Source of the DNA: Alphaproteobacteria bacterium
GTDB taxonomy: Bacteria; Pseudomonadota; Alphaproteobacteria; RF32; CAG-239
Reading direction: 5' to 3'
Length of the DNA stretch: 64,000 nucleotides
Assembly (NCBI GenBank): GCA_045593845.1
Contig: JAZNXK010000004.1
Location: 78,296-142,295, forward strand
A program made the translations under genes and the position numbers. Below the pieces are notes generated by a model. The model was not told where the DNA came from. It saw only the letters and a list, made by a program, of their open reading frames with translations, and did not search any database. Of this stretch, positions 5,418 through 57,659 are shown in pieces; the first letter of the stretch is position 1; each line of letters starts with the position of its first letter.

Positions 5418-6140
5418 CTACTTTTTATTGTGCTTCACAAAATATGTGCCATACACACAATAAAAATACCATTTCAGATAATGGCGCAGCCATTTAAACA
5501 GGTGAAAATTGGACACCCTACCCTCATCTTCCTGCCACTGTGACGGAACTTCGGTTATTTTATAGCCGTTAACCCAAGCCTTGGTCAAAATCTCCAACCC
5601 AATCTCAAATCCGCCGTTGCTCTCAATTTTGATATTCTTTATCAGTTTATCCGAATACATCTTAAAGCTGTTGGTGCAATCATGTGTCGGAATTCTCGTC
5701 AAAAGATTTAGCGACAAACCTGCCATTCTCGATAAAAAGCTCTTAAACTTCGGAGCCCCGACCTGACTGCCGCCCTTAACATAGCGCGAACCACAAACAA
5801 CATCATAACCTTCTTTAGCTTTGGCATACATTGTATCGACAACTTCCAAATTGTCGCTCAAATCGGCCATCATAATCAGTTTATATTCGGCGTTTGTATC
5901 TTGCAGACCGGTCAAAATCGCATTCAGTGCCCCACGTCCGTATTTATTTTTCATCAGTTCAATCGCATAAGGATACTCTCCGCTGGCAATACAATCTCTA
6001 ACCACCGGCAAAGTATTATCCTCGTCCTTGTCATATACGATATGCACCGTCATATCAACATGGACACAGCGCTTAATCTCATCCAAGGTGGCTTTGATAT
6101 ATTCTGCTTCGTTATAGACCGGAATAATTATATCAAGCAT
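5418..6140 (-). CDS. family 2 glycosyltransferase (polyprenyl-phosphate sugar synthase-like, Dpm1/ArnC/RgtE type)
   Basis: N-terminal IIIPVYNEAEYI motif, DxD-type region, and a C-terminal hydrophobic tail. Confidence 0.8.
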   Translation of the reverse strand: MLDIIIPVYNEAEYIKATLDEIKRCVHVDMTVHIVYDKDEDNTLPVVRDCIASGEYPYAIELMKNKYGRGALNAILTGLQDTNAEYKLIMMADLSDNLEVVDTMYAKAKEGYDVVCGSRYVKGGSQVGAPKFKSFLSRMAGLSLNLLTRIPTHDCTNSFKMYSDKLIKNIKIESNGGFEIGLEILTKAWVNGYKITEVPSQWQEDEGRVSNFHLFKWLRHYLKWYFYCVYGTYFVKHNKK

Positions 6141-7159: not shown

Positions 7160-7160
7160 A

Positions 7161-9805: not shown

Positions 9806-9905
9806 TTATTTACACCAATTATCCAACCATAATTGCTCTCATTTTAACCAAATTTAAACCTTTTTAAACAACAAAAAATTTTATACACAAAAATAATAAT
9901 AAACC

Positions 9906-11228: not shown

Positions 11229-11357
11229 ATTTTTATATCCAAAACTATCCTCAATTTCGAGATATACTAATGTAATTTAAACATTTTACAAAACATCAAA
11301 AAATTTTATACACAAAAAAACTTTACAAAAAATCTCATCCGAAAAATTAATTATAAC

Positions 11358-12689
11358 TTACTTATTCTTATCATAAAATACCGACAAATTCGCTTTTTCA
11401 ATTTTTCCAAACCGATTTATTGCATATTCTCTTGTCGTCATCAGAAAATACACATAATGTTTCATATCCCAAAAAGAAGCTTGCTTATAGTTCAGCAATA
11501 TCTCCGCTCTTTGTTTTTCTTTCTCACAAAAGTTCTTTAATCTGTCAAAGTTATCACAGCTCGCATATATACACAATTCCGATAGCAATAAAAAGCAAAT
11601 AACCGCTACCCCTCCTCTATAAGTATCAAGCGACAGATATTGCCTTAAAATTGCCAAATCACCCACAATTATCAATAGCGGAAAGGTTAAATACCTTGAA
11701 AATAAATAATTTGACCCTGCCCTGCCGATACCCAACACCAAGAGCATACCAAAGCTGAATATTATCAACCCTAACGGAAACAAATTTTGTCTTACCTTAT
11801 CGCTTTTCCACAAGACAAAAAGCAAACATACGGTTATCAATGTTTCCAAAATTCCTATAACCGTTTGCCATATCCCAAAGTTTCCGAATAACATTGTGCT
11901 TCCCTGTATAATCATCATATAATTTATCATTTGCGAAAATGATTCAGTCTTCACTTCAGGAAAGACCTCGTGATAATCATAGAAATAAACGGCATAACAC
12001 AAAACCATGGAAACGAGAACAAATAAAGAAAGATTCCTCTCAAAACGACGATTATATATCTGATAAATTATAACAACAGAGAGATAGCAAGGCCAAATAA
12101 CAAGACCGTGCAGTGATGAGAAAGAGGATACGAATGCCGATATAAGCGCAAATACAATATATTTAGTCTTTAGTGTTTTAATATACAAACATAAAGCTGC
12201 CAGCCCGAAAACCGCACAAAGCTCTATCAAAAACCAAGCGATTTGAAAACCCCACAGCAAATTCTCAAACTGCACCGTGCTAAACAAACAAAAGCCTGTT
12301 ATCAACGCATATATAATGTCTGATGAAGAAAAGGCAAAAAGTTTTTTATTTACCGTTCGCTTTATAAAAATATAATAAATCACAGAGAGCATAAACAACG
12401 ACACAAACATAATCATTTTATTGTTGTAATGTGTCAAATACGCAACGGAAAATATAATAATTTTCGGAAAAACAATTATATGCTCGTTATTGTAGGCAAA
12501 AAAACGTTTCCAATCAATTTTACCGCTTGTAATAATATCAATAAACTCGTCTATTATATCCATATCTTCATTGGAAATGGCATTAACTCCGTATTTCATG
12601 CCTATCCAAAACAAAAAGACTACGGGAATAGAGATTATAATGATTTTAAATAGAGAAACTAATTTTTTTCTATCGTTTATAAATTGCAT
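11358..12689 (-). CDS. polytopic membrane protein, paralog 3 of 3
   Basis: Same architecture and conserved blocks as paralogs 1 and 2. Confidence 0.65.
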   Translation of the reverse strand: MQFINDRKKLVSLFKIIIISIPVVFLFWIGMKYGVNAISNEDMDIIDEFIDIITSGKIDWKRFFAYNNEHIIVFPKIIIFSVAYLTHYNNKMIMFVSLFMLSVIYYIFIKRTVNKKLFAFSSSDIIYALITGFCLFSTVQFENLLWGFQIAWFLIELCAVFGLAALCLYIKTLKTKYIVFALISAFVSSFSSLHGLVIWPCYLSVVIIYQIYNRRFERNLSLFVLVSMVLCYAVYFYDYHEVFPEVKTESFSQMINYMMIIQGSTMLFGNFGIWQTVIGILETLITVCLLFVLWKSDKVRQNLFPLGLIIFSFGMLLVLGIGRAGSNYLFSRYLTFPLLIIVGDLAILRQYLSLDTYRGGVAVICFLLLSELCIYASCDNFDRLKNFCEKEKQRAEILLNYKQASFWDMKHYVYFLMTTREYAINRFGKIEKANLSVFYDKNK

Positions 12690-33752: not shown

Positions 33753-33983
33753 TTAATTTCTGCAAAGTTCTAATTCTTCGCGTAATTTATTTACCCGCCC
33801 CATCCATTCCCAAAAATTTGCAGCCTCGGCAAGTTCAGCTTTTTCAAGTTCATCTGCCACTTTTTTGCCGGCTATCGGATACATCGGGCAAAAGTCATAA
33901 CTTTCCCTCACGCATGAGCACAAGCAAAGCAGAACGCTCAAGATTAGGCTTGCTGTAAATAGCCGCTTTTTTCTTTTCAACAT
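33753..33983 (-). CDS. candidate o-spanin (outer-membrane lipoprotein)
   Basis: Basic N-terminus, hydrophobic stretch and lipobox-like LCSC. It overlaps the 3' end of the preceding TM-protein gene in another frame. Confidence 0.5.
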   Translation of the reverse strand: MLKRKKRLFTASLILSVLLCLCSCVRESYDFCPMYPIAGKKVADELEKAELAEAANFWEWMGRVNKLREELELCRN

Positions 33984-34101
33984 ATTTAATAACCTCCACC
34001 CTTTTGGTAATAACCTCTGTTTTCGCATGAGAGCGCCCCAAATAATATGCTCCGAAAACCAAAGCACAAACTGCAACCGCAATCACAATTATCTTTGTCA
34101 T
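33895..34101 (-). CDS. candidate i-spanin (N-terminal TM plus charged helix, 68 aa)
   Basis: MTKIIVIAVAVCALVFGAYYLG is a TM segment. The ATG overlaps the stop of the upstream small ORF (TAATG). Confidence 0.5.
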   Translation of the reverse strand: MTKIIVIAVAVCALVFGAYYLGRSHAKTEVITKRVEVIKYVEKKKAAIYSKPNLERSALLVLMREGKL

Positions 34102-34244
34102 TATCCCAACTCGGCAATATTTATACCCAAAGCGCAGATTGCCGCCAAAATTCCCCACAGCAACCAATAAATTTTTCGATGCTGTAAAGATTTTGTAATC
34201 AACCACCGCCAAAACAAATATCGGCAATTTTTATGCTTTTTCAT
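34101..34244 (-). CDS. small single-TM protein (47 aa), possible holin/antiholin-like lysis component
   Basis: Not in the ORF track because it is under 60 aa. AAAGGAG RBS, sequence MKKHKNCRYLFWRWLITKSLQHRKIYWLLWGILAAICALGINIAELG, translationally coupled to the i-spanin candidate. Confidence 0.4.
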   Translation of the reverse strand: MKKHKNCRYLFWRWLITKSLQHRKIYWLLWGILAAICALGINIAELG

Positions 34245-34372: not shown

Positions 34373-34588
34373 TCATCGAAGAACCAATCCATACTGCGGA
34401 TAATCGTTTTGCGCAATCCCCTGCCGCGCCATATCATTTGCCAGCTCATTTTCTCTGCTTAATCGCAATGTTTGATATTGCAACTCATCTTGTGTTGAAA
34501 ATCCGCTATGGTCAACTCCATAGCTGTCAACCCCATTGTCACCGTTTTGATACCCGAACGGAGATTGATACTTCCCGAAAAAATCCAT
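34373..34588 (-). pseudogene. N-terminal-module-only stub of the modular toxin family (71 aa)
   Basis: MDFFGKYQ...YPQYG followed by LVLR-stop. There is no cargo domain. Confidence 0.7.
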
Positions 34589-34647
34589 TTTATTTATCCC
34601 ATATAAAAAATTTATAAACTTTACTACATACAAATTTCGACATTTTA

Positions 34648-34797
34648 TTGACTTTTTTCCATTAATACGCTATATACAAAGTACCTTAAGGTACTTTTCC
34701 AATAGGAATGAAAACCGAAATCGCCTATTGCGTATCTTACATAGGGTTGACAGCCCTGTGCAAGGAAAAAAGGAAGGCTCTCACAAGAGAGCCTTTT
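34648..34797 (+). ncRNA. candidate small RNA, copy 1 (promoter, structured ~115 nt, terminator), convergent with 34801..35181
   Basis: TTGACT-N17-TATATA at 34648-34676. A CCTTAAGG box starts 8 nt after the -10. Conserved hairpin caatagg/cctattg, a second hairpin, then ggctctc/gagagcc plus TTTT. Confidence 0.55.
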
Positions 34798-34800
34798 AAT

Positions 34801-35181
34801 TTATCTTTTAGGATAATATGTAGTAGAGATAAAATTCTTATCATCTTTCAGCGATGTTACAACTCTTAAATCTCCATTTTTACCCTGCGACATATAAACA
34901 TTTTGACCAAATTGATTTGTTTCTACAGGTTCTTGCTTAATTATTCCTGGTATCCTTTTGACATCACTTCTATTAACACCATGCTTATATATTCCCTTAT
35001 TCAAACCAAAATTTCTAACCGTTCCTGTTTCTCGCCCCAAAGCTTTTCCATGTACAATCACATTTCCGTCTTCCCCTGCTATTGCCTCTCCTCGTTGTAA
35101 CACGACAGGTTCTCCGTTATGGTTTTTCATTTTTGCAATTACATCTGTAGCATTACCTGCAACATAAAAAAATTCTGTCAT
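34801..35181 (-). CDS. stand-alone KHGV-type cargo domain (orphan cassette with its own RBS and ATG, 126 aa)
   Basis: Homologous to the C-terminal ~120 aa of 35357..36400. The first part includes a 96-nt identical tract. Confidence 0.65.
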   Translation of the reverse strand: MTEFFYVAGNATDVIAKMKNHNGEPVVLQRGEAIAGEDGNVIVHGKALGRETGTVRNFGLNKGIYKHGVNRSDVKRIPGIIKQEPVETNQFGQNVYMSQGKNGDLRVVTSLKDDKNFISTTYYPKR

Positions 35182-35185
35182 TTCC

Positions 35186-35343
35186 TTGACTTTTACACCT
35201 TAATATAATATATATGAACTGCCTTAAGGTATTCCTTGCCAATAGGAATGAAATCGAAATCGCCTATTGTGTATCCTATACCCGCCAGATAAGCGGTTAT
35301 AGAGAACAAGGAAGAGGAGTTCTTGAACAAAGAACTCCTTTTA
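35186..35343 (+). ncRNA. candidate small RNA, copy 2, convergent with 35357..36400
   Basis: TTGACT-N17-TATATA at 35186-35214, with the same CCTTAAGG box and conserved hairpin. Hairpin 2 and the terminator (ggagttctt/aagaactcc plus TTTT) keep structure but not sequence. Confidence 0.55.
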
Positions 35344-35356
35344 TATATTTATTGTC

Positions 35357-36400
35357 TTACTTTTCAGGAATATATTTATACATTGAAGATATAGTCCTAT
35401 AATCATCAATAGGAGTTGTAGACAACTTAATTTTTTCATTATTACCAAGAAATCTATAAATGTGTTGATTTCTATTATTTATTTCCAACGGTTCATTTTT
35501 AATATATCTTGGAATTTTTACAACTTCATCTCTTGGAACCCCATGTTTATAAATAATTTTATTTAGTCCATAGTTTCTAGCTGTTCCTGTCGCATGTTGC
35601 AAAGGTCTTCCGCTAACAATCACATTTCCGTCTTCCCCTGCTATTGCCTCTCCTCGTTGTAACACGACAGGTTCTCCGTTATGGTTTTTCATTTTTGCAA
35701 TTACATCTGTACCATTTCCCTCAAAAGGATTTTGGCTCAATTTATCATAAGCTCGCCCTATCTTATATCCTTGATACATCATATTTACAGGCTCATATGT
35801 TGCCGCGCCTATCGTTCCTCCGCTCAACATTCCTCCGCCAAATTCTGCAAGTTTTCCAGTTCCATCTGCTAATGTCCGACTATTTTCGTCCTTTAGATTA
35901 AGATAATCATTCATTTTTGTATCAACTCCGAGTTTATTGCCCAACCAGTCCAAACCTCCGAAAGTCATTCCATTTATGGCTCTGTTCATACCATATAATG
36001 TATCCATACCGCTCATCAACAAACCGTTTTCCATATTCCTATTTTGTTGCTGTGTAAACATATTGCTTTCCTGTTCTTGAGACTGTTGATTCTGTACTGG
36101 CATATTTCTTGCCAAGTTCAGCGCGTTTTGTACTGTCGGACTAAGCTTTGAAATATCATAATTCGTAGCATTTGAGAGATTACTACCCCAAAAATTTGCT
36201 CCATACTGCGGATAATTGTTTTGCGGAATTCCCTGCCGCGCCATATCATTTGCCAGCTCATTTTCTCTGCTTAATCGCAAAGTTTGGTATTGCAGCTCAT
36301 CTTGTGTTGAAAATCCGCTATGATCAACTCCATAGCTGTCAACTCCATTGTCACCGTTTTGATACCCGAACGGCGATTGATACTTTCCGAAAAAATCCAT
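35357..36400 (-). CDS. modular toxin-family protein: N-module plus Q/N-rich linker plus Gly-rich region plus KHGV-type C-terminal domain
   Basis: Full N-module and the ISKLSPTVQNALNLAR linker. Start placed at MDFFGKY (36400). Confidence 0.75.
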   Translation of the reverse strand: MDFFGKYQSPFGYQNGDNGVDSYGVDHSGFSTQDELQYQTLRLSRENELANDMARQGIPQNNYPQYGANFWGSNLSNATNYDISKLSPTVQNALNLARNMPVQNQQSQEQESNMFTQQQNRNMENGLLMSGMDTLYGMNRAINGMTFGGLDWLGNKLGVDTKMNDYLNLKDENSRTLADGTGKLAEFGGGMLSGGTIGAATYEPVNMMYQGYKIGRAYDKLSQNPFEGNGTDVIAKMKNHNGEPVVLQRGEAIAGEDGNVIVSGRPLQHATGTARNYGLNKIIYKHGVPRDEVVKIPRYIKNEPLEINNRNQHIYRFLGNNEKIKLSTTPIDDYRTISSMYKYIPEK

Positions 36401-36452
36401 CTTATTTTTCCCTTCCATAAAAAAAAGAGCCTTAAAAGCTCTTTAATGTATA

Positions 36453-36779
36453 TCAAAATGACTTAATAATCATTATCGTTTCGCTCGGATAATAAAGCAT
36501 AACCAAAACTTCCATAATGAGACAAGGTATTGTAATATATTGCAAGCGAAGTTTATCATCATGTATGCACACACTCCACTTTTTTTGTAACACATAACAC
36601 AAAAACAAAGGATGTACTACCCAGAAACATATATCAAAAATAAATAACACCGGAAAAAATGGTACATAAGCATGCAACCCTATCATAACAGAAAAAGCTA
36701 CAGCAACAAAAAAGGCTACTATAAAATCTAGTACTTTAATTATTGTTTTGTTTTCAGTTGTCTTATTTATATTGTACAT
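36453..36779 (-). CDS. 3-TM membrane protein (candidate immunity protein for 36791..37423)
   Basis: Lies immediately downstream of, and adjacent to, the cassette. Hydrophobic throughout. Confidence 0.55.
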   Translation of the reverse strand: MYNINKTTENKTIIKVLDFIVAFFVAVAFSVMIGLHAYVPFFPVLFIFDICFWVVHPLFLCYVLQKKWSVCIHDDKLRLQYITIPCLIMEVLVMLYYPSETIMIIKSF

Positions 36780-36790
36780 AAATAAACCAC

Positions 36791-37423
36791 TTACCAATCT
36801 TTATTATTCACAGCATCACTAATCTTGTTAGTAATATAATTAACACCTTGTGTCAACACTTTTCGCGTTCCAACACCTGCTCCCCTCGTAAGCGGTAATT
36901 GATTAATTTTCACGCCTACTGTATTTGCAATCCCATTAGCAATCAAATTCGTCCCGAAATCTTTCCAATTTTCGGCATATCCGGCAGAAGCAATACCGGT
37001 ATTTGCGACTGCATTAAGAGCATTATCCATTACTTTCGCACCCTTAAACAACCGCAGCGGCGACATCACTGCACCAGCAAATTCTGCCCCACCATATAAA
37101 TACGGATAGTTTGTGCTCAAGTTATTTTGCAATTGTCTGGCTACATCTCTACCTTTGGTATAGTTGTCGCTATTTCCTGTCAACAAAGCCGATACTCCTC
37201 CAAAAGTTTCATCAAAATTTCCTAACGTTAAACCTGTCGTATATCCAACCGCCGCTGCTTGCGTTGCATCAGCAAAATTTTCTCCCCAATTTTTTACCGT
37301 ATTCCAAGTATTATTTTGCTGTTCTTGCGGCTGGCGGCTTTCTGCCGGAAACTTTCTTGCTAAATTAAGTGCATTTTGCACTGTCGGACTAATACTCGCA
37401 ATATCAATCCCGCCTCCTCTCAA
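36791..37423 (-). CDS. orphan cargo cassette starting at the conserved linker (LRGGGIDIASISPTVQNALNLAR), Gly-rich C-terminal domain
   Basis: No N-module. There is an in-frame stop 11 codons upstream, and only a TTG start at the linker. Confidence 0.55.
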   Translation of the reverse strand: MRGGGIDIASISPTVQNALNLARKFPAESRQPQEQQNNTWNTVKNWGENFADATQAAAVGYTTGLTLGNFDETFGGVSALLTGNSDNYTKGRDVARQLQNNLSTNYPYLYGGAEFAGAVMSPLRLFKGAKVMDNALNAVANTGIASAGYAENWKDFGTNLIANGIANTVGVKINQLPLTRGAGVGTRKVLTQGVNYITNKISDAVNNKDW

Positions 37424-37496
37424 ACTCGCATATTGATAATACCATTGACATCATGATTGTTTATCGCCTCATAAAGCCTAGTCCAATTTTGTTTAT

Positions 37497-37979
37497 TTAA
37501 TCCACCGGTGTTATATTGTAGAGAAATATCAAATATAACATCAAGATTATAATTGGTATTGCAATTATTGCATAAAAAACTTGCAAAAATCTGAAAAAAT
37601 AATACAAAATTTTATTTTTATTCTCAAATAAATAGCTATTCCACAAGTAGAGAATAGCAAAAAAGAATAACAATCTGTTAAATATAATCAATATGAGTGT
37701 AAACAAATCAATTTCTGTTGCATTGTTTATTAAGCCTCCCATTTCTAAAAAGATATTTATTCCAAAAGAAGATAAGATAAAAAATATCGAAAATAAAATA
37801 TTAAAGCAAAAATTTTTATAATCACTATAATTTATCCAATATCCGAACCATATCTTTTGAAATAATAGTGGAACAATTATTCCTACATATACAACCTCTT
37901 CTATAAAACCGACAAAAGCAAAAGGCTCAATTAGAATTGTTAAAAATAAAAGTAAAGAAAGCAAATATTTAACAAACAC
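37497..37979 (-). CDS. 5-TM membrane protein (candidate immunity protein for 38063..38476)
   Basis: Very hydrophobic 160-aa ORF with a GTG start, downstream of the glycine-zipper toxin. Confidence 0.55.
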   Translation of the reverse strand: MFVKYLLSLLLFLTILIEPFAFVGFIEEVVYVGIIVPLLFQKIWFGYWINYSDYKNFCFNILFSIFFILSSFGINIFLEMGGLINNATEIDLFTLILIIFNRLLFFFAILYLWNSYLFENKNKILYYFFRFLQVFYAIIAIPIIILMLYLIFLYNITPVD

Positions 37980-38062
37980 TTATTATCCTCCATAATATAG
38001 ATCAAGATAATAAATGAAAAGGTACAAACAGTCAACTTATTTATACATTTCTCATAGATATG

Positions 38063-38476
38063 TTATTTTTCAAATTTTATTGGATTACTTAATAATAAAT
38101 TGCAAGTTTCAGGAACATTATATCTACCAGCAATATATCCTGCCGTAGCTCCGATAAAATCATTTTTCAAATCTTTTTTAGCATCCCCGAGTACCCCTAA
38201 TATACCTCCATATGCCACCCTTTTTTGAGGATCAGCAATTTTATCTTTAGTATCTTGCATTTCTTTATACAACCCTCCTGCTAAAGTTTCTGCAGTAGCC
38301 AATAATCCATCTGTTGAGCCAATACAACTTACATACTGATGTTTATTCACATCCGATATATCAAATTGCAGCTCATCTTGTGTTGAAAATCCGCTATGAT
38401 CAACTCCATAGCTGTCAACTCCATTGTCACCGTTTTGATACCCGAACGGCGATTGATACTTTCCGAAAAAATCCAT
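38063..38476 (-). CDS. modular toxin-family protein: 36-aa N-module fused directly to a glycine-zipper-rich C-terminal domain (137 aa)
   Basis: MDFFGKY..STQDELQ followed by AGGLY..AYGGILGVLGDA..IGATAGYIAG. Confidence 0.7.
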   Translation of the reverse strand: MDFFGKYQSPFGYQNGDNGVDSYGVDHSGFSTQDELQFDISDVNKHQYVSCIGSTDGLLATAETLAGGLYKEMQDTKDKIADPQKRVAYGGILGVLGDAKKDLKNDFIGATAGYIAGRYNVPETCNLLLSNPIKFEK

Positions 38477-38554
38477 CTTGTTTTTCCTTATATAAAAAGT
38501 TTGACAATGTTCGAAAATAAATTTAACCTCTCTTTGTTCTAAAGGAGATAATTC

Positions 38555-39004
38555 ATGAAGAAAATTTTAGTGCTTGTCATTTTACCTTTAATCTATTGCC
38601 TTAATGTTTCTGCTGCAGAAAAAAATATTGATATCCTTGAAAAGGAATTTATAGATTGCGCAGATAGTTGGGAAAAACATGAACAAAAATGTCCGGAATC
38701 ATGGAGTATGAAATGTTATAATCACTTAATGACTGCTCATAAAAATACTCAACAATGCTTTCAAAAAGTTGCAGTAAAATTGTTCACAAATTTCTACGAG
38801 TTATCTGAAAAAGAAGCAAATAAAAAGATTGATGATTTTCTCAAATTCACCTATGACCAATATTTCTTCATTTTTGCCGAAACCGATTTTTGCAAAAAGA
38901 ATAATTGCGGCCTCTCAATATATTTATATAGCGAATATGTAACCACTGACCAATTACGATATTATGTAAACAAAATAATTAGGTCTATATCTGCCAGAAA
39001 TTAA
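38555..39004 (+). CDS. secreted Cys-containing helical protein, possible LprI/DUF1311-like lysozyme inhibitor (candidate immunity protein)
   Basis: AAGGAG RBS and signal peptide ..LNVSA/AE. Convergent with the GH108 cargo gene, overlapping it by 4 nt. Confidence 0.6.
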   Translation: MKKILVLVILPLIYCLNVSAAEKNIDILEKEFIDCADSWEKHEQKCPESWSMKCYNHLMTAHKNTQQCFQKVAVKLFTNFYELSEKEANKKIDDFLKFTYDQYFFIFAETDFCKKNNCGLSIYLYSEYVTTDQLRYYVNKIIRSISARN

Positions 39005-39909
39005 TATTCATTATACCTTTTTCTGTGCCCTCTTTCAAATATTATTTGTGATGGGTCTTTTTTCAGATATTCATCTTCTGCTCGGTTTACATTATTTATA
39101 AAATCTGTTCTTATAGCTTTATAATTTGTATTTCTGACAGCTCCCAAAGTATCTGAACCTATTATACCATCTGCCTTAACTCCGAGAGCTTTTTGCAAAT
39201 TCATAATTGCTGTCGGTTGCCCTTGCACAACACCATCATCAAAAACTATACCTGCCAATTCGTCAGGAAGTTGATTTATTTTGGGTTTTAACCAATAATC
39301 TCGATAATATATTGCATCAGCTCTTTCTCTTGTCATATTTTCTATATCTTCATCCGGATAAATACGCGAACTTATACCATAATTTGTAGCTCCACCTCTA
39401 TCATTCGGATGATTAACATACCCGCCCTCATTTGCTCTGGTTCTATTCATTGCTTGTTGAAAGCGATTATCAGCTAACATTTGATCAATAAATGATTGAC
39501 TAAAATCATTTCCATACAAAGAATAATCAATATTAGCTTCTTGATTACCATCATTCATAACCGTCGACAATACATTTTGAGCATATTGAATAGCCGATTC
39601 ATTTGTTGGATTATTCTTTGCCAAATTTAATGCTGCTTGCACAGTCGGACTAATACTCGCAATATCAAGCCCGCCTCCGCGCAAACTTGCATTCTGCCAA
39701 AAGTTTGCTACATACTGCGGATAATCGCACTGCGCAATTCCCTGCCGCACCATATCATTTGCCAGCTCATTTTCTCTGTTTGTACGCAATGTTTGATATT
39801 GCAACTCATCTTGCGTTGAAAATCCGCTATGATCAACTCCATAACTGTCAACCCCATTGTCACCGTTTTGATACCCAAACGGCGATTGATATTTCCCGAA
39901 AAAATTCAT
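39001..39909 (-). CDS. modular toxin-family protein: N-module plus GH108 lysozyme plus peptidoglycan-binding domain
   Basis: EGGYVNHPNDRGGATNYGI is the GH108 signature. It is followed by a PG_binding_3-like LQKALGVKADGIIGSDTL. Confidence 0.8.
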   Translation of the reverse strand: MNFFGKYQSPFGYQNGDNGVDSYGVDHSGFSTQDELQYQTLRTNRENELANDMVRQGIAQCDYPQYVANFWQNASLRGGGLDIASISPTVQAALNLAKNNPTNESAIQYAQNVLSTVMNDGNQEANIDYSLYGNDFSQSFIDQMLADNRFQQAMNRTRANEGGYVNHPNDRGGATNYGISSRIYPDEDIENMTRERADAIYYRDYWLKPKINQLPDELAGIVFDDGVVQGQPTAIMNLQKALGVKADGIIGSDTLGAVRNTNYKAIRTDFINNVNRAEDEYLKKDPSQIIFERGHRKRYNEY

Positions 39910-40000
39910 CTTGTTTTCTCCTTTACATAAAAAAAAGAGCCATAACGGCTCCTGTAAAAAAATTTTGAAAATTTCAAGTAAACATAAACAACAAAAAATC

Positions 40001-40237
40001 CTAAAAAGGTAAACCTTTCTGCTTTTTCAAGATATTTTCTTTAGTTATAGGTACACATCCTATTTTTTCATCCCAAGTTAAACAATCTGATCGGCATATT
40101 TTTTGCTCAGGGTCATAAATTTTTCCCCCATCAAGGCAAACCATTTTCATATCTAGTTCAAAATAACAATAAATAGCAATTATCATAATTACAAAAAAAC
40201 AAACCAGATATTTTATAATTTTTTTAATACTTTTCAT
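40001..40237 (-). CDS. membrane-anchored Cys-rich small protein (candidate immunity protein for the SAA-like cargo)
   Basis: N-terminal TM plus CLDGGKIYDPEQKICRSDCLTWDEKIGCV. Overlaps the upstream gene by 14 nt. Homologues lie at 56346..56528 and 56476..56874. Confidence 0.65.
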   Translation of the reverse strand: MKSIKKIIKYLVCFFVIMIIAIYCYFELDMKMVCLDGGKIYDPEQKICRSDCLTWDEKIGCVPITKENILKKQKGLPF

Positions 40238-40907
40238 TAATGCCCTCCACTCTCTGATAACGACAGGCTTCTTTAGAGTCAGAATAAAAAGGATTATCCA
40301 CTAATTCTCTCGCCTGAAAATTTACATCCCTATCATGCCAATAATCAGCCAAAGCATCAGGATACGACATTCCTTTGTAATATCTATTCTTGAAATAGTC
40401 AAATACTTCTTTTTCATTTCCTAAAACTTTCGCTGCTAGTTTACCATACATTCCTCTTTGTGCAGCCTCATAATTGCCTTTACAATGAAAATAATCATCT
40501 CCACCAATAGTATTGTCAGATTTCATATCAAAATAATTGCGCACCATATCCATGGTACCACCAAGAACTTGTCGCATTGGAGATTGCTGAGTTTGTTGTT
40601 GTGCAGGCAAACTTCTTGCTAAATTCAGTGCTGCTTGCACTGTCGGGCTCAACCTTGAAATATCATAATTTGTTCCATTTGACAAATTATTACCCCAAAA
40701 ACCCGTGCCATACTGCGGATAATCGCACTGCGCAATCCCCTGCCGCGCCATATCATTTGCCAGCTCATTTTCTCTGCTTAATCGCAAATTTTGATATTGC
40801 AGCTCATCTTGTGTTGAAAATCCGCTATGATCAACTCCATAGCTGTCAACTCCGTTATCTCCGTTTTGATACCCGAACGGTGATTGATACTTTCCGAAAA
40901 AATCCAT
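40224..40907 (-). CDS. modular toxin-family protein: N-module plus serum-amyloid-A-like C-terminal domain
   Basis: DDYFHCKGNYEAAQRG aligns with the vertebrate SAA core [16 protein letters not shown]. The gene starts 12 nt after the endolysin stop. Confidence 0.75.
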   Translation of the reverse strand: MDFFGKYQSPFGYQNGDNGVDSYGVDHSGFSTQDELQYQNLRLSRENELANDMARQGIAQCDYPQYGTGFWGNNLSNGTNYDISRLSPTVQAALNLARSLPAQQQTQQSPMRQVLGGTMDMVRNYFDMKSDNTIGGDDYFHCKGNYEAAQRGMYGKLAAKVLGNEKEVFDYFKNRYYKGMSYPDALADYWHDRDVNFQARELVDNPFYSDSKEACRYQRVEGINEKY

Positions 40908-40919
40908 CTTATTTCCCTC

Positions 40920-41354
40920 TCATTTTATATCATTATAAAAAAAATGTCCTTTTGTTTCATAACAAGGAGCATGATGCAAAGCCCACTTCGGTTTTATATT
41001 TTTGGTATGATAAAAAGTAGCATTATTGGTAAAATCCGTCATTTTACCCGCAATCGCCTTTTTTGCCACATTCAAACATCTGACAAAACTTGCATCATTT
41101 TCATCAACTCGCAAAAGTTTTTGATAATTAGGATCATTTTTATTCCAGCAGCTAAATTGAAATCTCTTTTGACATGTCTCCCTGATTCCGGCAATTTTGA
41201 CACCGTTTTCCATTTTGTAACCGGTAAACCATTTTTTTGCCCTAAATCTGTTCATTATAACGCAAGCAACCGCCTCAATTCCCTCCAAACCATCACCTCT
41301 GGCCTCACCCCACAAGGTTTGTGCCAAAACCCAAACATCATCATCTCGCAGCAT
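40920..41354 (-). CDS. endolysin, SleB/CwlJ-type cell-wall hydrolase (Hydrolase_2)
   Basis: LAQTLWGEARGDGLEGIEAVACVIMNR motif. Confidence 0.8.
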   Translation of the reverse strand: MLRDDDVWVLAQTLWGEARGDGLEGIEAVACVIMNRFRAKKWFTGYKMENGVKIAGIRETCQKRFQFSCWNKNDPNYQKLLRVDENDASFVRCLNVAKKAIAGKMTDFTNNATFYHTKNIKPKWALHHAPCYETKGHFFYNDIK

Positions 41355-41628
41355 TTTTACCTGCCTTATTTTTGCAGTTTAGTAACAAATCCAACTTTCC
41401 CTCAAAACTGTCAAATTTACTCTCAAGTTTTGCCAACATAATATTTTGCTGATTTTGCATAACAATAATTGAGGCCGTTTCTTTATCTGTCTTATCAATT
41501 CGCAGCAAAACCCCGCAAATTTTCTCCTCCATACACCCTTTCCATGCCCCGATTTTTATCAGGTTCAAAATCATCCCTGCCAGAGCGGTAATTCCTGCCG
41601 CACCGCCAACCAAATTTATCAGTTCCAT
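41341..41628 (-). CDS. small N-terminal-TM protein, possible holin
   Basis: A single TM (GGAAGITALAGMILNLI) followed by a charged coiled tail. Overlaps the endolysin start. Confidence 0.45.
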   Translation of the reverse strand: MELINLVGGAAGITALAGMILNLIKIGAWKGCMEEKICGVLLRIDKTDKETASIIVMQNQQNIMLAKLESKFDSFEGKLDLLLNCKNKAGKNAAR

Positions 41629-46899: not shown

Positions 46900-47334
46900 T
46901 CATACAAATTTACAATCCTCGCGCAACATCCCCAAGACAAAGGCATCTTTGCCATCGGGATAATAAGCACGCATTTTTCCCTCTTTCACAAAGCCGCATC
47001 TCATAGCCAACGATACAGAAGCTTTATTATCCTCACAAATAAGCGCATTAATTCTTCTGCATTTCAAAGCATTAAAAGCCACACCGAAAATTTGGCGCAA
47101 AACTTTTGCCGTGCACCATTTTTTATCCCAAGTGCAAATACTTATCCATGCAGAATCATTTTCGCGATAATCACTATACGCAACCATCCCCAGACACTTA
47201 TCTTCTCGCAAAATCTCAAAAACAAATCCTTGAACAAACTCCATTTCATCCAAATTAAGCTTTTGCGCAATCTGTCTGGCAGCGGCCATACCTGTTTTAT
47301 AAACAATCTCAACCAAGTCCTTCTCCTTGTTCAA
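46900..47334 (-). CDS. GNAT-family N-acetyltransferase
   Basis: RimJ/L-like pattern (..NKASVSLAMRCGFVKEG..). Confidence 0.7.
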   Translation of the reverse strand: MNKEKDLVEIVYKTGMAAARQIAQKLNLDEMEFVQGFVFEILREDKCLGMVAYSDYRENDSAWISICTWDKKWCTAKVLRQIFGVAFNALKCRRINALICEDNKASVSLAMRCGFVKEGKMRAYYPDGKDAFVLGMLREDCKFV

Positions 47335-48856
47335 AGCGCAAACCGGTATTATACCACTCTATTGCGGTGCCGCTTGTCTTGGTCCTAAAAACAACAGAAG
47401 CCTTAAAACCAAGCGCATTATTACCGATCCACTGGCTTTGAATTTTAGTTTTCAAACTTCCCCATTTTGTTCCTATCGGTTGCGCCAGACAGCTCCACTT
47501 GCTGAAATTCCACCTGCTGCCGCTTGCACTTCCGATATTTTCGGCATATTCTTTATCTTGATCATCAAAATCCATATTGGTATAGATATTTAATGCAAAA
47601 GACGTATTGCTTTTTATCCTGGGGTTTAACATCAAAATTTTCTTAAAACTTGCACTACCCAAAGCACAATATGCCTGATGCACAGAGCCGGCAATCGGCA
47701 TACCGTCATCCGATTGTCCTTCATCAAACAAATAAACTCCGCTTTCCGAACCAAAAAACAAGCGACCTTCAAACAAACACCAACACAATGAGTTAATTCC
47801 CACAAAACGGCACCAAGCACCGGAACTCATATTGATTACATGTTGCTCAAACTGCGCTCCGATAGGCACATTAAAAAGTGCATATCCTCCTCGCGGATAA
47901 ATAATTCCCTGCCAACCGAATAAATTTTTTCCGTTTTTAACTCGGCTCAAAAACAGGCCTCTTATCTTGTCACTGTAAGCAACGGAATTTACATTACTGC
48001 CGGCAAGTTTCAGCACCGCACTCAACGGCAAATATCCTTCTTCGCAAATCAGAACTATGTCGCCTTGATATTGCAAAACGCAGTTATCTCCGATAGGCCG
48101 GCTGACAAAATATTTTCCGCGCATTTTCCAATCATCAGGGTCAGAAGGATTACTGCCGGAATAAACCAATACTTCACCTTCCGAGGTTATAAAAACCGTC
48201 AAATCATCAATTCCCTGTCCCCCATCCAAAGTCCAAGAAGCAATTGCTGCCAAATATCCGCCTTTGGTGGTCAAAAATGATAAATCAACTTTGTTTAACG
48301 TGCCTTGAACCTCACCAACTCCATCCGCATACCAATAGCAAAGAGAATTTTTCTCCACATAGAAGACTCTTTGTTTTGAGATAGTCGGCTTACATAAATG
48401 CTTTTTTACCAATTCTGTTCCGCTCAAAACTGTATCTTCCCAAACAAATACCCCCTGCCCGTTTTCATAATAGGAAAGCGGATTATCAACCCCGTTGGCA
48501 AGCAACAATCTATCTCTGAATTGCACATATTGCCAAACATTGCAATCCAGTTCATCAACCATAACATCATCAGAACCGCTGGTCACATCAATAATTTTAC
48601 CGGCAGTTGCTGCAAACAAACGACTATGTTGCGGATTGCAAAATTTTATCAAAGTTTCAATACTTGTATCTGCATCTTGTAAGGCATAGGCCTTATATCC
48701 GTTTCGAAGACAAACACTGCTTTCCGAAGGATAATAATTATCCATTAAAATTGCATCCGTATCTTCCATGGCATCAATACTGTCACGCATATTAAGCCCG
48801 CCAATCGGCGATGGCAAAATATAGTTAATTGAGCGATTAACATTCCTTCTTAACAT
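47309..48856 (-). CDS. large tail/nozzle-type structural protein (515 aa)
   Basis: Its position between the head-completion genes and the fibres. No motif recognised. Confidence 0.5.
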   Translation of the reverse strand: MLRRNVNRSINYILPSPIGGLNMRDSIDAMEDTDAILMDNYYPSESSVCLRNGYKAYALQDADTSIETLIKFCNPQHSRLFAATAGKIIDVTSGSDDVMVDELDCNVWQYVQFRDRLLLANGVDNPLSYYENGQGVFVWEDTVLSGTELVKKHLCKPTISKQRVFYVEKNSLCYWYADGVGEVQGTLNKVDLSFLTTKGGYLAAIASWTLDGGQGIDDLTVFITSEGEVLVYSGSNPSDPDDWKMRGKYFVSRPIGDNCVLQYQGDIVLICEEGYLPLSAVLKLAGSNVNSVAYSDKIRGLFLSRVKNGKNLFGWQGIIYPRGGYALFNVPIGAQFEQHVINMSSGAWCRFVGINSLCWCLFEGRLFFGSESGVYLFDEGQSDDGMPIAGSVHQAYCALGSASFKKILMLNPRIKSNTSFALNIYTNMDFDDQDKEYAENIGSASGSRWNFSKWSCLAQPIGTKWGSLKTKIQSQWIGNNALGFKASVVFRTKTSGTAIEWYNTGLRFEQGEGLG

Positions 48857-52141: not shown

Positions 52142-53971
52142 TCAATTTACCTTTTCTTTTGAATTATCCTGCTGTTTCTGTGCAGTTTGCACCGCAAGTT
52201 CTTTATTGGCAAAAGCCAATTTTTCAGCCTCAATTTTTGCCTTAATATCAAGTTCCTTATTTTTTAGGGCATTTTTCTGCAGTTCTATAATTTGCTTGAT
52301 ATTCGGACTATTATCATCATCTTTTTTATTTTGTTCTGGCAATATTGCTTGTGCATTCGGTATTTCAGAAACATTTTCATCCAGCAATAACTCTCGTTCA
52401 ATAGAATTAAACACTCCCTCAAGTACCGTATCAAAAGATCTTGCTCGCGGCATGGTGGATATAATTGCCTCAACCATACATCTGTATAAAGGAAGTAATT
52501 TAGGCTGCGTGGAAACGGTAAGCAAAGCCTCTTGCACCGTTTTTCCTAGATTGGAAACCGCCGCAATCATACTCGCATTTTCTTCGGCCTTGTTAATCAC
52601 GCTACCGGTCTCAACCGTAAACAACATTCCGCGAAGTTTTTCGGTTTTAAGCAAGCGCACCGCCATCTCCGCCAGTCCTTTTTCCTGCTTTTGTTCTTCA
52701 GGCAAAAAAGAAGCCAATTTTTCATCGCTGAAATATTCGCAGATAATTTCTGCCTTAATTCTCAACAAATCCCTGATAAATCTTTGCATATCATTTTGTC
52801 TGTCCTGATTGCGCAAAGTTCCAAAATTTGTCTTTTTGATAATTGCCGTCGCCGTGTCAGCACTGTTGGAATTTCCACGCATAATATCCGAAACACCGGT
52901 AATCTCAAAAATATTATTGATAACATCTTGTCTGCGTTTTGAAAGTTGCTCCAATGCCGCAATATATTGTTCCAAAGGTACAAAGTCGATAACCGACCTA
53001 ATTCCGCCACTCTCACGCAATTTTGTAAAATCTGAAACCGAAACCAAAGTCACGTCTTTACTCAAAATATCTGCCAATTCCGGAAAAGAATTGTCATAAG
53101 CCCCGCTGACTTTTAAGGCCTGCATGGTAAGCTTCATGCGATTATTTATCCCATTTAGCTCATTCAGCATTTCTTTTATCAAACAATAATCCGGCGCCGG
53201 AATAAGGCTGTCATTGGTCTGGGTAGCCCAAATCGGCTTCGGACAAGGAAAGAAATTTTGCATTCCGCAAACATTGGCGCTGATTTTCAAAAATCTGTCA
53301 GAACAAGCTTTTGAAAGCCAATAAACACGACGGCTTTTCTTATCCCACACCTCATACACCAAAATATCGCCTTTAATTTTTATATTATCGACCGCAAAAT
53401 TTTGCTTTACTTCATCAGCAGTCATATAAATTTTTCGCGCTACCCAATCGACTTCTTCCCAAACACCTTTTTTCATGCAATCGGCAATAAAATCTTTTGG
53501 ATCAACATAGATTGACTCAACTTTCTCATCTTTTTTTACAGTCAATTTTTCCAACGGATTTATAGGATTTGGAACTTCTGTAAATTCCGGTTTATATTGT
53601 TCCCAAAGCACTCCTGTTCCCGAAATCAAAAAGTCGTTGCGGGCATATTTTATAACACTGTCAAAATCAAATTGCGCCAAATCCCACTCCAAAGCTTTTT
53701 CCAAAATAGTGCAAGCCGCGCGCTCCGCCCTATTGGCGCTTTTGTTTTGCCGCTCAATATAAAATTGCGGTTGCTTAAAATATAAAAAAGGCTTCAATGT
53801 TTCTATTGTTGACCAAAAAATATTATATTTTCCGCCGTCATATTTTCGTTCATCTTTATAAACCTTTCTTGTCTCGTCAACCAATTGATAATAAGCATCA
53901 TACTCCTTTTCGGCAGAGGCAATTTTTGCAAACCACTCCTTAAGCAAGGATTTTTCTTCTGTTTCATTCAT
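52142..53971 (-). CDS. portal protein
   Basis: About 610 aa, lying between the large terminase/GroES genes and the scaffold and capsid genes. Confidence 0.7.
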   Translation of the reverse strand: MNETEEKSLLKEWFAKIASAEKEYDAYYQLVDETRKVYKDERKYDGGKYNIFWSTIETLKPFLYFKQPQFYIERQNKSANRAERAACTILEKALEWDLAQFDFDSVIKYARNDFLISGTGVLWEQYKPEFTEVPNPINPLEKLTVKKDEKVESIYVDPKDFIADCMKKGVWEEVDWVARKIYMTADEVKQNFAVDNIKIKGDILVYEVWDKKSRRVYWLSKACSDRFLKISANVCGMQNFFPCPKPIWATQTNDSLIPAPDYCLIKEMLNELNGINNRMKLTMQALKVSGAYDNSFPELADILSKDVTLVSVSDFTKLRESGGIRSVIDFVPLEQYIAALEQLSKRRQDVINNIFEITGVSDIMRGNSNSADTATAIIKKTNFGTLRNQDRQNDMQRFIRDLLRIKAEIICEYFSDEKLASFLPEEQKQEKGLAEMAVRLLKTEKLRGMLFTVETGSVINKAEENASMIAAVSNLGKTVQEALLTVSTQPKLLPLYRCMVEAIISTMPRARSFDTVLEGVFNSIERELLLDENVSEIPNAQAILPEQNKKDDDNSPNIKQIIELQKNALKNKELDIKAKIEAEKLAFANKELAVQTAQKQQDNSKEKVN

Positions 53972-54221
53972 CTTCAAAAACTCCCAAAATACTGTTTTCT
54001 CTCAAAGCTACAACGTCTTTTTCCGGCATAGGCAAATCATCAAAAACATGAAACAACACCCTGTCACCGACCTTAACCGACCTCACATCTTTGCCCACCG
54101 AAACAACTTCTCCCGTCGTTCGCTGATTTGCAAAGCCATCGCATAAAAATATTCCCCCGTCTGTAGTTGCCTTTTCTTCAGGCAGCTTAACAAACACCCT
54201 GTCCATTATCGCCTGTATCAT
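53964..54221 (-). CDS. GroES/Cpn10-like co-chaperonin (85 aa)
   Basis: GroES pattern: DRVFVK..E....T.GGI.L.......G.VV.VG......V.VGD.V.F. Confidence 0.7.
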   Translation of the reverse strand: MIQAIMDRVFVKLPEEKATTDGGIFLCDGFANQRTTGEVVSVGKDVRSVKVGDRVLFHVFDDLPMPEKDVVALRENSILGVFEDE

Positions 54222-54308
54222 TTTTCTCCTTTCTGATAAAAACCGCTTGCCAGCGGAATATTGCCAACAAAAAAGGCCGCTAAAAGCAGCCTCGTTTTTC
54301 ATAAAATT

Positions 54309-56153: not shown

Positions 56154-56282
56154 TCAGCGCAAACCTGCATATTGCAGTTCATCCTGTATTGAAAATCCGC
56201 TATGGTCAACTCCATAGCTGTCAACTCCGTTATCCCCGTTCTCATACCCGAATGGCGATTGATATTTCCCGAAAAAATTCAT
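56154..56282 (-). pseudogene. N-module stub (42 codons) ending at an in-frame TGA inside the linker
   Basis: MNFFGKYQSPFGYENGDNGVDSYGVDHSGFSIQDELQYAGLR-stop, followed by remnants of GRLDVA. Confidence 0.65.
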
Positions 56283-56345
56283 CTCCTTCTCCCACAAAAA
56301 AAGGAGCCTCAAATGCTCCTGCAAAAAATCCCGTAATTCAAACCA

Positions 56346-56528
56346 CTAAAAAGGCAAACCTTGTTGCTTCTTAAAGATATTTTCTTTAGTTATAGGTACA
56401 CATCCTATTTTTTCATCCCATGTTAGACAATCCGAACGGCATATTTTTTGCTCCGGATCATAAATTTCTCCGCCATCAAGACAAACCATTTTCATTACAA
56501 ACATCAGGATAAATCCAGTCTTTTCCAT
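56346..56528 (-). pseudogene. N-terminally truncated copy of the Cys-rich immunity-like gene 40001..40237
   Basis: About 88% nucleotide identity by eye to 40001-40150. The TM anchor is missing. Confidence 0.55.
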
Positions 56529-56874
56529 GTTTATAGCATTTATCTAAAGTAAATTCTGCATCACATTCGCCGGTTGTTGGATTAAATGGTAAGTTATTTT
56601 GCATGCAAATAGCTATTATAACATCATTAGAAATACATCCTACTGGTTTATGACGACACTTTTCAAACAATTTAACTTGGTCATATGTCATCATAACACA
56701 ACCGTTAATTTTATTCCATACCAAACAGTCATCACGGCAACGTTTTTCTTTATAATCCCAAACATTACCGGCATCCAAACAACTGTTTTGCATAAGAAAA
56801 ACAAAGCATTTCCAAGCAACAAAACATAAAATTACCAAGAAAATAGTAATTCTTATAGCCTTCAAATTACGCAT
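56476..56874 (-). CDS. membrane-anchored Cys-rich protein (candidate immunity protein, 132 aa)
   Basis: N-terminal TM. CLDAGNVWDYKEKRCRDDCLVWNKINGCV is homologous to 40001..40237. Lies directly downstream of the SAA-like cargo. Confidence 0.65.
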   Translation of the reverse strand: MRNLKAIRITIFLVILCFVAWKCFVFLMQNSCLDAGNVWDYKEKRCRDDCLVWNKINGCVMMTYDQVKLFEKCRHKPVGCISNDVIIAICMQNNLPFNPTTGECDAEFTLDKCYKHGKDWIYPDVCNENGLS

Positions 56875-56886
56875 AATATCCTCACT

Positions 56887-57463
56887 CTACCAATACTCTT
56901 TAGGAAACGCCGGATTTTTTGTTCGATAATCCGCACATGCTTCTTCAGCATTATCGTACAGTCCGGAATCTCCACGCAACCGTCCCACAATATTCACATT
57001 CAAATCATGTGCTTTATCATCTTGAGCTTCTTCCTCGCTTTTCCTTTTGTATGCCTGATTCCAATAAAAGTCAAATTTTTCTTTTGCATCACCAAGCATT
57101 TTAGCAGTATTATACCCTAATGGACCGCGTGATGCTGCATTGTAATTAGCCTTACAATGATGGTAATCATCTAAATTTTTATAATTATGCTTTTTCATCT
57201 TAAAATATTCAGACACCATATCTTTTGTTGCACCAACAATTTGTTGAAGTGGAGATTGCTGGTTCTGCTGAATTTGCTCAGGCATATTTCTAACAAAATT
57301 GAGAGCATTTTGCACAGTCGGACTTATACTCGCCACATCAAGCCTGCCTTCGCGCATACCCGCATTGCGTTGAAAATCCGCTATGATCAACTCCATAGCT
57401 GTCAACTCCGTTATCCCCGCTCATATACCCGAATGGCGATTGATATTTCCCGAAAAAATCCAT
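56887..57463 (-). pseudogene. frameshifted modular toxin gene: N-module (33 aa) out of frame with linker plus SAA-like domain
   Basis: Frame 1 gives MDFFGKYQSPFGYMSGDNGVDSYGVDHSGFSTQ then a stop. The next frame gives ..NAGMREGRLDVASISPTVQNAL..DDYHHCKANYNAASRGP..FPKEYW. An internal ATG at MREGRL is possible. Confidence 0.65.
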
Positions 57464-57659
57464 CTCCTTCTCCCACAAAAAAAGGAGCCTAAAAGCTCCC
57501 ATCAAAAATTCAAACCAAACAACCTTATCACGCAAAAAAACAAGAGGCGGCATCTCATCGACCCACCTCTCGCATTATGGAAAAAAATATAACACAGAAT
57601 GACAGAAAAGTCAATTTTAGATTGTTCACCCTGTGGATAACTTTTTTACCTCCCTTATT

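Follow-up and report, generated by a model that had tools for sequence, protein, structure and literature searches.

The window analysed here, a stretch of 64,000 nucleotides from an uncultured gut or rumen alphaproteobacterium (contig JAZNXK010000004.1), includes a prophage within which two convergent genes code for a 302-residue protein ending in a glycoside hydrolase family 108 (GH108) domain and for a 149-residue secreted protein, here termed Imm149. This pair is probably a toxin-immunity cassette, part of a polymorphic toxin system that a temperate phage carries, with the larger protein as a putative muramidase toxin and the smaller as its putative periplasmic immunity protein. The evidence comprises the domain content and predicted compartments of the two proteins, the strict co-occurrence of their genes across independent loci, the mobility of the cassette between different N-termini, and the existence of partner genes that have outlived their enzymes. 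The coordinates of all relevant features are collected in Table 1.

Domain searches conducted with the 302-residue translation confirmed the GH108 signature RANEGGYVNHPNDRGGATNYGI claimed for it in a first-pass annotation of the same DNA, and gave a Glyco_hydro_108 (PF05838) match to residues 155-230 (E 3e-23) that scored 82.5 bits against a family cut-off of 21.2. The predicted catalytic residues E161, D170 and T175 are spaced +9 and +5, as are Glu17, Asp26 and Thr31, the catalytic residues of Brucella SagA (PMC8334348), and are at least 90% conserved in 36 homologues. Sequence matches in the PDB (2IS5, 2IKB, 7DNP, 6V3Z and 6V40) included NMB1012, Brucella SagA and Salmonella TtsA/Sen1395, and a Foldseek search with the GH108 model returned SagA (7DNP) as the best match (E 6e-9; template modelling score TM(target) 0.76), together with NMB1012 and TtsA (6V40); as modelled, the domain has its nearest fold relatives in SagA and TtsA, both active muramidases. 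The C-terminal PG_binding_3 (PF09374) match, at 22.5 bits, fell just short of the 24.6-bit cut-off and covered residues 234-263 only; PF09374 is called in near homologues such as P0037. The alignment of the model with SagA of Brucella spans 164 columns of a chain of 174 residues, and both domains are therefore covered. The GH108 domain is complete, its catalytic triad is intact, and N-acetylmuramidase activity is predicted. The protein exhibited neither a signal peptide nor any transmembrane (TM) or hydrophobic segment.

The opposing gene codes for a product that bore out its initial description as a secreted, helical protein with conserved cysteines. Residues 1 to about 20 (38555..38614) form a Sec signal peptide comprising a KK pair, a hydrophobic core and a predicted cleavage site between NVSA and AE, with no lipobox; six cysteines (C35, C46, C54, C68, C113 and C118) are invariant both in 12 homologues and in 16 partnered homologues; and the AlphaFold 2 (AF2) model is an all-helical four-helix bundle with a predicted local distance difference test (pLDDT) score of 86. 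Homologues at 40-76% identity were recovered from many assemblies, which establishes a real gene rather than a chance open reading frame (ORF). An exhaustive search of 1.84 billion cluster representatives with a hidden Markov model (HMM) gave a family of 59 clusters, nearly all of 140-165 residues, and no match was present in 50,697 phage records or in IMG/VR. The tail-to-tail overlap with the GH108 gene noted at first pass amounts to 4 nucleotides (39001..39004), the two stop codons interlocking in the ATTAA at 39000..39004.

A TTGAC(A/T) box lies about 50 nucleotides 5' of the partner ATG at no fewer than seven loci including the window (the others being L001, L004, L014, L024, L093 and, twice, L095), a recurrence which suggests that the partner gene has its own promoter; the window element was missed by a consensus promoter scan because its -10 hexamer is weak. 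Promoter-like matches were not enriched overall (31 against 33.7 expected). For that reason no weight is placed on the best sigma-70-like match of the array, TTGAAA-17-TATAAT (11/12) at 39038..39010 on the minus strand, which lies in the 3' end of the GH108 gene, reads antisense through the partner gene and may be due to chance.

Attempts to connect the partner with known lysozyme inhibitors were uniformly negative, and the resemblance to LprI/DUF1311 proposed at first pass was not sustained by any sequence or profile link. Members of that family are likewise small, exported and helical with conserved cysteines, but Imm149 is not a lipoprotein and has no profile similarity to PF07007, there being no Pfam match to it at E <= 10 for 12 members of the partner family or at E <= 1 for 42 members; E. 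coli YecT, included as a positive control, was confirmed as an LprI/DUF1311 member at E 1e-17. Profile-profile comparison with YecT using hhalign gave probabilities of 2.1% (12-sequence alignment) and 0.8% (42-sequence alignment), with the signal peptide alone aligned. PliC, MliC and Brucella PhiA are eight-stranded beta-barrels with an SGxxY loop (PMC8334348); the partner model is all-alpha, its sequence includes no SG dipeptide, and no Pfam match to that family was recorded. PliI, PliG and Ivy were rejected in that 42 members gave no Pfam match and neither PDB sequence nor fold searches gave a hit, so that for PliC, MliC and PliI alike Pfam, PDB profile and Foldseek comparisons all failed. 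Homology to Pim of plasmid pPCP1 was discounted at an hhalign probability of 0.2%, and a Peptidase_M13 match (E 0.004, below cut-off, in 2-3 members only) was dismissed as noise. Foldseek searches with the partner model returned only designed or generic helical bundles from the PDB and nothing significant from BFVD. Across the family, Pfam and NCBIfam gave no assignment and the PDB no sequence match. On its sequence, the protein is a member of a family that is small and has no previous description.

The distribution of the two genes was established from loci gathered in three ways, via the partner, via the GH108 domain and via GH108 homologues. The partner is present at about 24 distinct loci, both within prophages and outside them. 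Sixteen of these carry a full-length GH108 C-domain of the window's clade (59-82% identity to the window protein), and in 16/16 the pair is convergent and overlapping, mostly by 4 nucleotides and at most by about 13; a sister prophage, L095, contributes two further convergent pairs. Every intact GH108 gene examined from the window's subclade, at about 20 independent loci, has a convergent partner homologue, and none was detected by tblastn or HMM at 63 GH108 loci of <=54% identity (0/63), 47 of which extended for at least 500 bp downstream. The genomic contexts are diverse: the pair sits in prophages in the window and L095, beside ligA/infC in L001, beside Mfd/RecG in L004 and L096, beside an autotransporter gene in L007 and beside UvrD in L093. 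The GH108 and partner cassette was recorded behind at least four different N-termini, namely the N-terminal module of the window protein (hereafter the N-module), the module of L020, the N-terminus of L007, and a Phage_Mu_F domain in L091 (6001..7481; P0099, P0102), where the convergent partner is retained. In L020 an array at 5995..12378 deploys its own N-module (MSNLIQYIIQEDPEEERRRQ...), on which GH108 occurs twice, together with an SLT-like domain and a lysozyme domain that weakly resembles pesticin (E 0.002, under the cut-off). The second of these GH108 domains is divergent and has its own convergent gene for a 162-residue secreted protein, detected only weakly by the partner HMM.

These co-occurrence data effectively refute the proposition that the GH108 protein is a second prophage endolysin whose neighbour is unrelated, the pairing being a coincidence of phage gene order. 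Such a proposition, now extremely improbable, is favoured by the PHROG match of the gene to endolysins (E 3e-41), by the endolysin label that GH108 proteins carry in PHROG and the databases, and by the position of the gene about 1 kb from the lysis genes. However, the pairing recurs in about 20 loci that include non-phage contexts and is absent from all 63 ordinary GH108 loci; a separate Hydrolase_2 endolysin, correctly recognised at first pass as a SleB-type enzyme distinct from the GH108 protein, directly follows a putative holin; and matches of phage proteins to the 302-residue protein span residues 135-301 only, its 127-residue N-terminal extension having no counterpart in phage endolysins.

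Partner genes were also found beside incomplete enzymes. In the L004 family the partner is retained next to a GH108 gene truncated at about the catalytic Glu (upstream of it or just after it), in L012 and L013 next to the last 40 GH108 residues, and in L003 and L021-L023 with no GH108 at all; an orphan GH108 C-domain lies at 11508..12116 of L095. The persistence of the partner beside truncated or missing enzymes follows the decay pattern of immunity genes. The partner, at a mean distance of 0.52, has changed more quickly than the enzyme, at 0.36; a Mantel comparison of their distance matrices shows correlation (r 0.88, 0/5000 permutations). The C-terminal ~45 residues of GH108 (39004..39150 in the window) and ~25 residues of the partner (38915..39001) co-vary as two types, GH(R/K)xR...Y being found with ...SISARN, and GWxNRxNxY with ...Y(I/V)(K/E)NQ; 18/18 listed pairs fit this division, the divergent L025 having been placed in the second type by eye. 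The co-varying tails could represent interacting helices, or an overlapping junction that recombines as one piece.

Alignments confirmed that the N-module is common property of the array, as had been asserted: residues 1-99 are 76-100% identical to the N-termini of 40224..40907 and 35357..36418, the first 38 of them recur in 38063..38476, and additional copies, whole or fragmentary, begin at 34588, 32795, 56282 and 57463, in each case on the minus strand. The AF2 model of the module, of moderate confidence, comprises coil at residues 1-31 and helices at 32-55 and 88-99. The low-complexity linker that follows marks the junction of constant and variable parts, the N-module alignment ending there, and the paralogues carry GH108, serum amyloid A (SAA)-like, Gly-rich and unassigned C-termini. 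A constant N-module with variable C-termini, an adjacent co-inherited small gene, a cassette found on several N-termini and orphan cassettes are all features of polymorphic toxin systems.

Elsewhere in the array, different warheads are matched to secreted or membrane partners. The SAA-like gene and its small neighbour are adjacent again in L001, L002 and L010, and a second mini-array contains at 56887..57553 another N-module plus SAA-like gene (E 4e-18), frameshifted within the N-module and followed by a gene for a small Cys-rich membrane-anchored protein (56476..56874). The SAA-like domain thus occurs in the window as a C-terminal warhead, and probable toxin, twice followed by such a protein. 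The C-terminal domain common to 34801..35181 and 35357..36418 gave no family match, and full-length versions of the 36791..37423/36453..36797 pair are present in L095. That sister prophage occupies the same tolQR-adjacent chromosomal site and shows 70-98% protein identity to the window prophage; its pre-terminase slot (7475..12559) holds two GH108/partner cassettes and two cassettes of a Gly-rich toxin with a 115-residue membrane protein. The cargo of this slot differs from that of the window, which indicates rapid cargo turnover between near-identical phages. All the partners in the array are secreted or membrane proteins, which suggests that delivery would have the periplasm or the inner membrane as its end point.

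Some of these observations would suit a lysin delivered by the virion and coupled to superinfection exclusion, whereby the N-module would target the protein to the particle, the GH108 domain would open the peptidoglycan at DNA entry, and the 149-residue protein of the lysogen would block related phages. The fusion of the GH108 cassette to the MuF head-morphogenesis domain in P0099 and P0102 (L091), the orientation of the arrays, which share a strand with the late genes of a P22/Sf6-like prophage, the predominance of peptidoglycan hydrolases among the L020 warheads (nearly all of them), and the orphan partner genes, which would suit anti-phage defence, are consistent with that account. It is nevertheless considered unlikely, since the N-module also heads warheads that are not lysins (the SAA-like and the hydrophobic Gly-rich ones), for each of which there is a separate membrane or secreted partner; each prophage carries several paralogous copies plus truncated cassettes; intact pairs lie far from phage genes in L001, L093 and L096; tail-associated genes resembling hydrolases are present in the prophage in any case (PHROG amidase, 47309..48856); and the structural proteins in the window are without the N-module.

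The structural matches recorded for the GH108 domain invite comparison with a housekeeping autolysin and its regulator, as in SagA/PhiA or TtsA, in which the enzyme would remodel the producer's own wall for secretion or assembly and the periplasmic partner would restrain it. The closest solved structures are those of SagA, an autolysin associated with a T4SS (a secretion system of type IV), and of TtsA, the muramidase of typhoid-toxin secretion; SagA also has an adjacent periplasmic partner (PMC8334348); and a weak NCBIfam match to a holin-associated muramidase was recorded. However, that match scored 65 bits against a cut-off of 240, and the GH108 protein has neither a signal peptide nor a TM anchor, with no holin of its own adjacent to it, whereas SagA has a C-terminal TM region (PMC8334348). 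The N-module is swappable and held in common with unrelated warheads, and the genes are multi-copy, often truncated and variable between sister prophages, a pattern typical of conflict systems rather than of housekeeping genes. An autolysin with its regulator is on this evidence very improbable.

Returning to the toxin-immunity cassette, the absence of a signal peptide on the toxin and the export of its partner place the two proteins in different compartments of the producer, and a periplasmic partner is therefore sensible only against an enzyme that arrives in the periplasm. The 302-residue protein would be made in the cytoplasm, where it should be harmless, and the constant N-module would direct its export, release or uptake; on reaching the periplasm of a neighbouring cell, the C-terminal N-acetylmuramidase would cut peptidoglycan, and would thus be toxic from outside. 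The 149-residue protein, probably driven by a promoter of its own and uncoupled from the late genes of the phage, would be exported by Sec to the periplasm, where three disulfides would stabilise it and where it would bind and block the incoming cognate GH108 domain, so that lysogens and other carriers survive the toxin of their siblings. The route preferred is release at prophage lysis, given the place of the array within the lysis cassette, with the N-module then mediating passage across the outer membrane of the target as for pesticin and colicin M; packaging of the toxin in the virion, as the MuF fusions suggest, is possible. The conservation of the N-module, its partly unstructured character and the location of the array are compatible with colicin-like imported bacteriocins. 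The motif DHSGF in the N-module, which might be a TolB box of the colicin type (DGSGW), was considered but not used as evidence.

Several results weigh against this interpretation. The loci examined revealed no secretion system, and no machinery for export or uptake was identified, nor was a Tol/TonB box or receptor established; around chromosomal arrays, that of L001 among them, lysis genes are absent. The N-module had no match in Pfam or IMG/VR, nothing known being matched, and the partner family is similar to no inhibitor or immunity protein known to Pfam, NCBIfam, PDB, Foldseek or hhalign searches. In the closest characterised GH108 system the adjacent periplasmic PhiA neither bound nor inhibited SagA in vitro (PMC8334348), a result from which it follows that adjacency is no proof of inhibition. 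The Mantel correlation is counted as compatible only, because linkage alone predicts such a correlation, and the co-varying tails may also stem from physical linkage alone. A broader proposition, that the phage lysis cassette serves as a release device for polymorphic periplasm-acting bacteriocins (GH108, SAA-like and Gly-rich membrane toxins) equipped with a hitherto undescribed uptake module of ~100 residues and with matching periplasmic or membrane immunity proteins made by the lysogen, is offered as a tentative possibility.

The prophage itself extends over ~31.5-59.4 kb of the window, adjoins tolQ/tolR, and is P22/Sf6-like, with terminase, portal, SU10-type capsid protein and tail genes plus a cI/S24 repressor. 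The main array (34.3-40.9 kb) is flanked by the Hydrolase_2 endolysin, with its putative holin, and by two spanin-like ORFs for which family searches gave no match; the lysis cassette is therefore split, by ~6.5 kb of cargo. Terminator-like hairpins are enriched within the array (13 against 3.7 expected) and separate the cassettes.

Table 1. Features of the GH108/partner pair, its array and the adjacent prophage genes (positions and strands in the window).
Feature	Position	Strand	Basis or remark
Spanin-like pair of overlapping ORFs (putative)	33753..34227	-	Sequence features only: N-terminal TM helix; lipobox LCSC; downstream limit of array
Further N-module genes/fragments in rest of array (34373..38476)	38063..38476, 36791..37423, 35357..36418, 34373..34633	-	
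Orphan toxin C-terminal copy, 126 residues	34801..35181	-	Copy of C-terminal domain of 353-residue protein 35357..36418
Small multi-TM proteins in array	37497..37979, 36453..36797	-	
Promoter-like element of partner gene (putative)	38501..38529	+	TTGACA 38501..38506, 17 nucleotides, TAACCT 38524..38529
Imm149, 149-residue secreted protein; putative periplasmic immunity protein/GH108 inhibitor	38555..39004	+	ORF, homologues, AF2
N-module-linker-GH108 protein, 302 residues; putative muramidase toxin	39001..39909	-	ORF and domain searches
GH108 catalytic domain plus PG_binding_3-like C-terminal domain, residues 128-302	39004..39528	-	Pfam, PDB sequence matches, Foldseek
Catalytic codons (predicted)	E161 39427..39429; D170 39400..39402; T175 39385..39387	-	
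Low-complexity linker, residues 100-127	39529..39612	-	Predicted disordered, AF2 pLDDT 24-33
Shared N-module, residues 1-99	39613..39909	-	Alignments; motif G-Y-x7-D-x-YGVDH-x2-F-x3-DE-x2-YQ ... YPQ-x4-FW
Terminator-like hairpin	39935..39953	-	Between upstream SAA/78-residue cassette and GH108 gene
Membrane-anchored Cys-rich protein, 78 residues; candidate immunity protein for SAA-like toxin	40001..40237	-	ORF
N-module plus SAA-like (PF00277) protein	40224..40907	-	Pfam SAA E 3e-20
Phage endolysin, Hydrolase_2/SleB type	40920..41354	-	Pfam E 7e-14 and PHROG endolysin; upstream limit of main array
95-residue ORF, possible holin	41341..41628		By position alone; no family match
Second mini-array, partly decayed	56154..57553	-	Between terminase and early genes; Cys-rich small proteins, N-module fragment

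Relatives of the phage and its cargo occur in virome-derived sequence, as indicated by the human faecal virome contigs MT838567.1 (4474..4686) and MT835830.1, which hold an N-module at 61% identity and a terminase with 71% identity to that of the window; among the phage records the N-module had a single match, an unannotated faecal-virome contig. Other genes of the prophage were noted in passing. A GNAT acetyltransferase-like gene (46900..47334) stands among the tail genes with the PHROG 'amidase' already mentioned, which codes for 515 residues. In the terminase-portal interval a small ORF (53964..54302) has as its counterpart in L095 a Cpn10 (GroES-like) gene, and the L004 remnant has a weakly Cpn10-like gene ahead of a large unannotated ORF.

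The parallel with pesticin and Pim of Yersinia pestis plasmid pPCP1, drawn at first pass, stands in part. Pesticin likewise places a muramidase warhead derived from phage lysozyme behind a non-catalytic N-terminal part, in a toxin with no signal peptide, and Pim is a small periplasmic immunity protein specific for that warhead (PMC3390615); pst and pim are convergent, tail to tail, as is the window pair. The toxin-immunity logic, now well backed by the gene neighbourhoods of about 25 independent loci, and the convergent arrangement were therefore upheld, whereas the family assignment was not, and the term bacteriocin presumes a delivery route that is here only proposed. The pesticin warhead is T4-lysozyme-like (GH24 type) rather than GH108, Pim is not homologous to the 149-residue protein, the pesticin N-terminus is a defined FyuA-binding domain for TonB-dependent import whereas import by the uncharacterised N-module would be by an inferred route, and pesticin comes as one gene pair on a plasmid rather than as a multi-cassette prophage array.

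Effectors of the Tge/Tgi type delivered by type VI secretion systems (T6SS; Tse3-Tsi3, VgrG3-TsiV3) also pair a cell-wall-degrading enzyme with an adjacent gene for a cognate periplasmic immunity protein, and orphan immunity genes occur among them. A T6SS effector with a pesticin domain and an immunity protein, TssI2-TsiI2, has also been described (PMC9620997). These pairs differ from the present one in that no T6SS component, PAAR, VgrG, MIX or similar marker was seen in the window or any examined locus; the effectors belong to other families than GH108, the immunity proteins have other folds, and the immunity gene in the window is convergent and overlapping rather than co-directional. The MuF family (PMC5576092) and Bxa (PMC11699363) likewise combine a constant N-terminal domain, variable toxic C-termini and adjacent immunity genes on temperate phages, and some relatives of the window GH108 cassette are themselves fused to MuF. 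However, the window protein has no Phage_Mu_F (PF04233) match, its N-module being different and undescribed, and the immunity proteins described for MuF and Bxa are cytoplasmic whereas the partner here is periplasmic; in its main text the MuF survey makes no mention of a warhead that is a lysozyme, targets peptidoglycan or acts in the periplasm (PMC5576092). Brucella abortus SagA, the best structural match, is an alphaproteobacterial GH108-fold muramidase with the same catalytic triad, and its adjacent gene encodes PhiA, a disulfide-containing periplasmic protein with a signal peptide and proposed as an inhibitor (PMC8334348). SagA differs in being a membrane-anchored autolysin that serves the VirB T4SS rather than a modular toxin, and PhiA in being an MliC/PliC-type beta-barrel unrelated to the predicted all-alpha partner (PMC8334348).

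Peptidoglycan-hydrolase toxins with periplasmic immunity, and polymorphic toxins borne by prophages, are thus already known (PMC5576092, PMC11699363); what is new is the GH108 warhead in a toxin role, the immunity family, the N-module, and the placement of the array inside a lysis cassette. The literature searched yielded no paper linking GH108 to toxin-immunity or effector systems. Should the proposed function hold, GH108, hitherto recorded only in endolysins and in autolysins associated with secretion, would become an interbacterial toxin warhead, and the 149-residue protein would found a family of immunity proteins or inhibitors that is new and without relatives in Pfam, NCBIfam or PDB, and would be the first specific proteinaceous inhibitor of GH108, the only earlier candidate, PhiA, having failed to bind in vitro (PMC8334348). 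The bacteria concerned are uncultured gut and rumen Alphaproteobacteria, about whose competition next to nothing is known. The N-module would be a new N-terminal trafficking module, and the prophage a carrier with two variable sites for toxin arrays, one of which splits its lysis cassette, an arrangement that would open the relation between lysis by the phage and release of the toxin to experiment.

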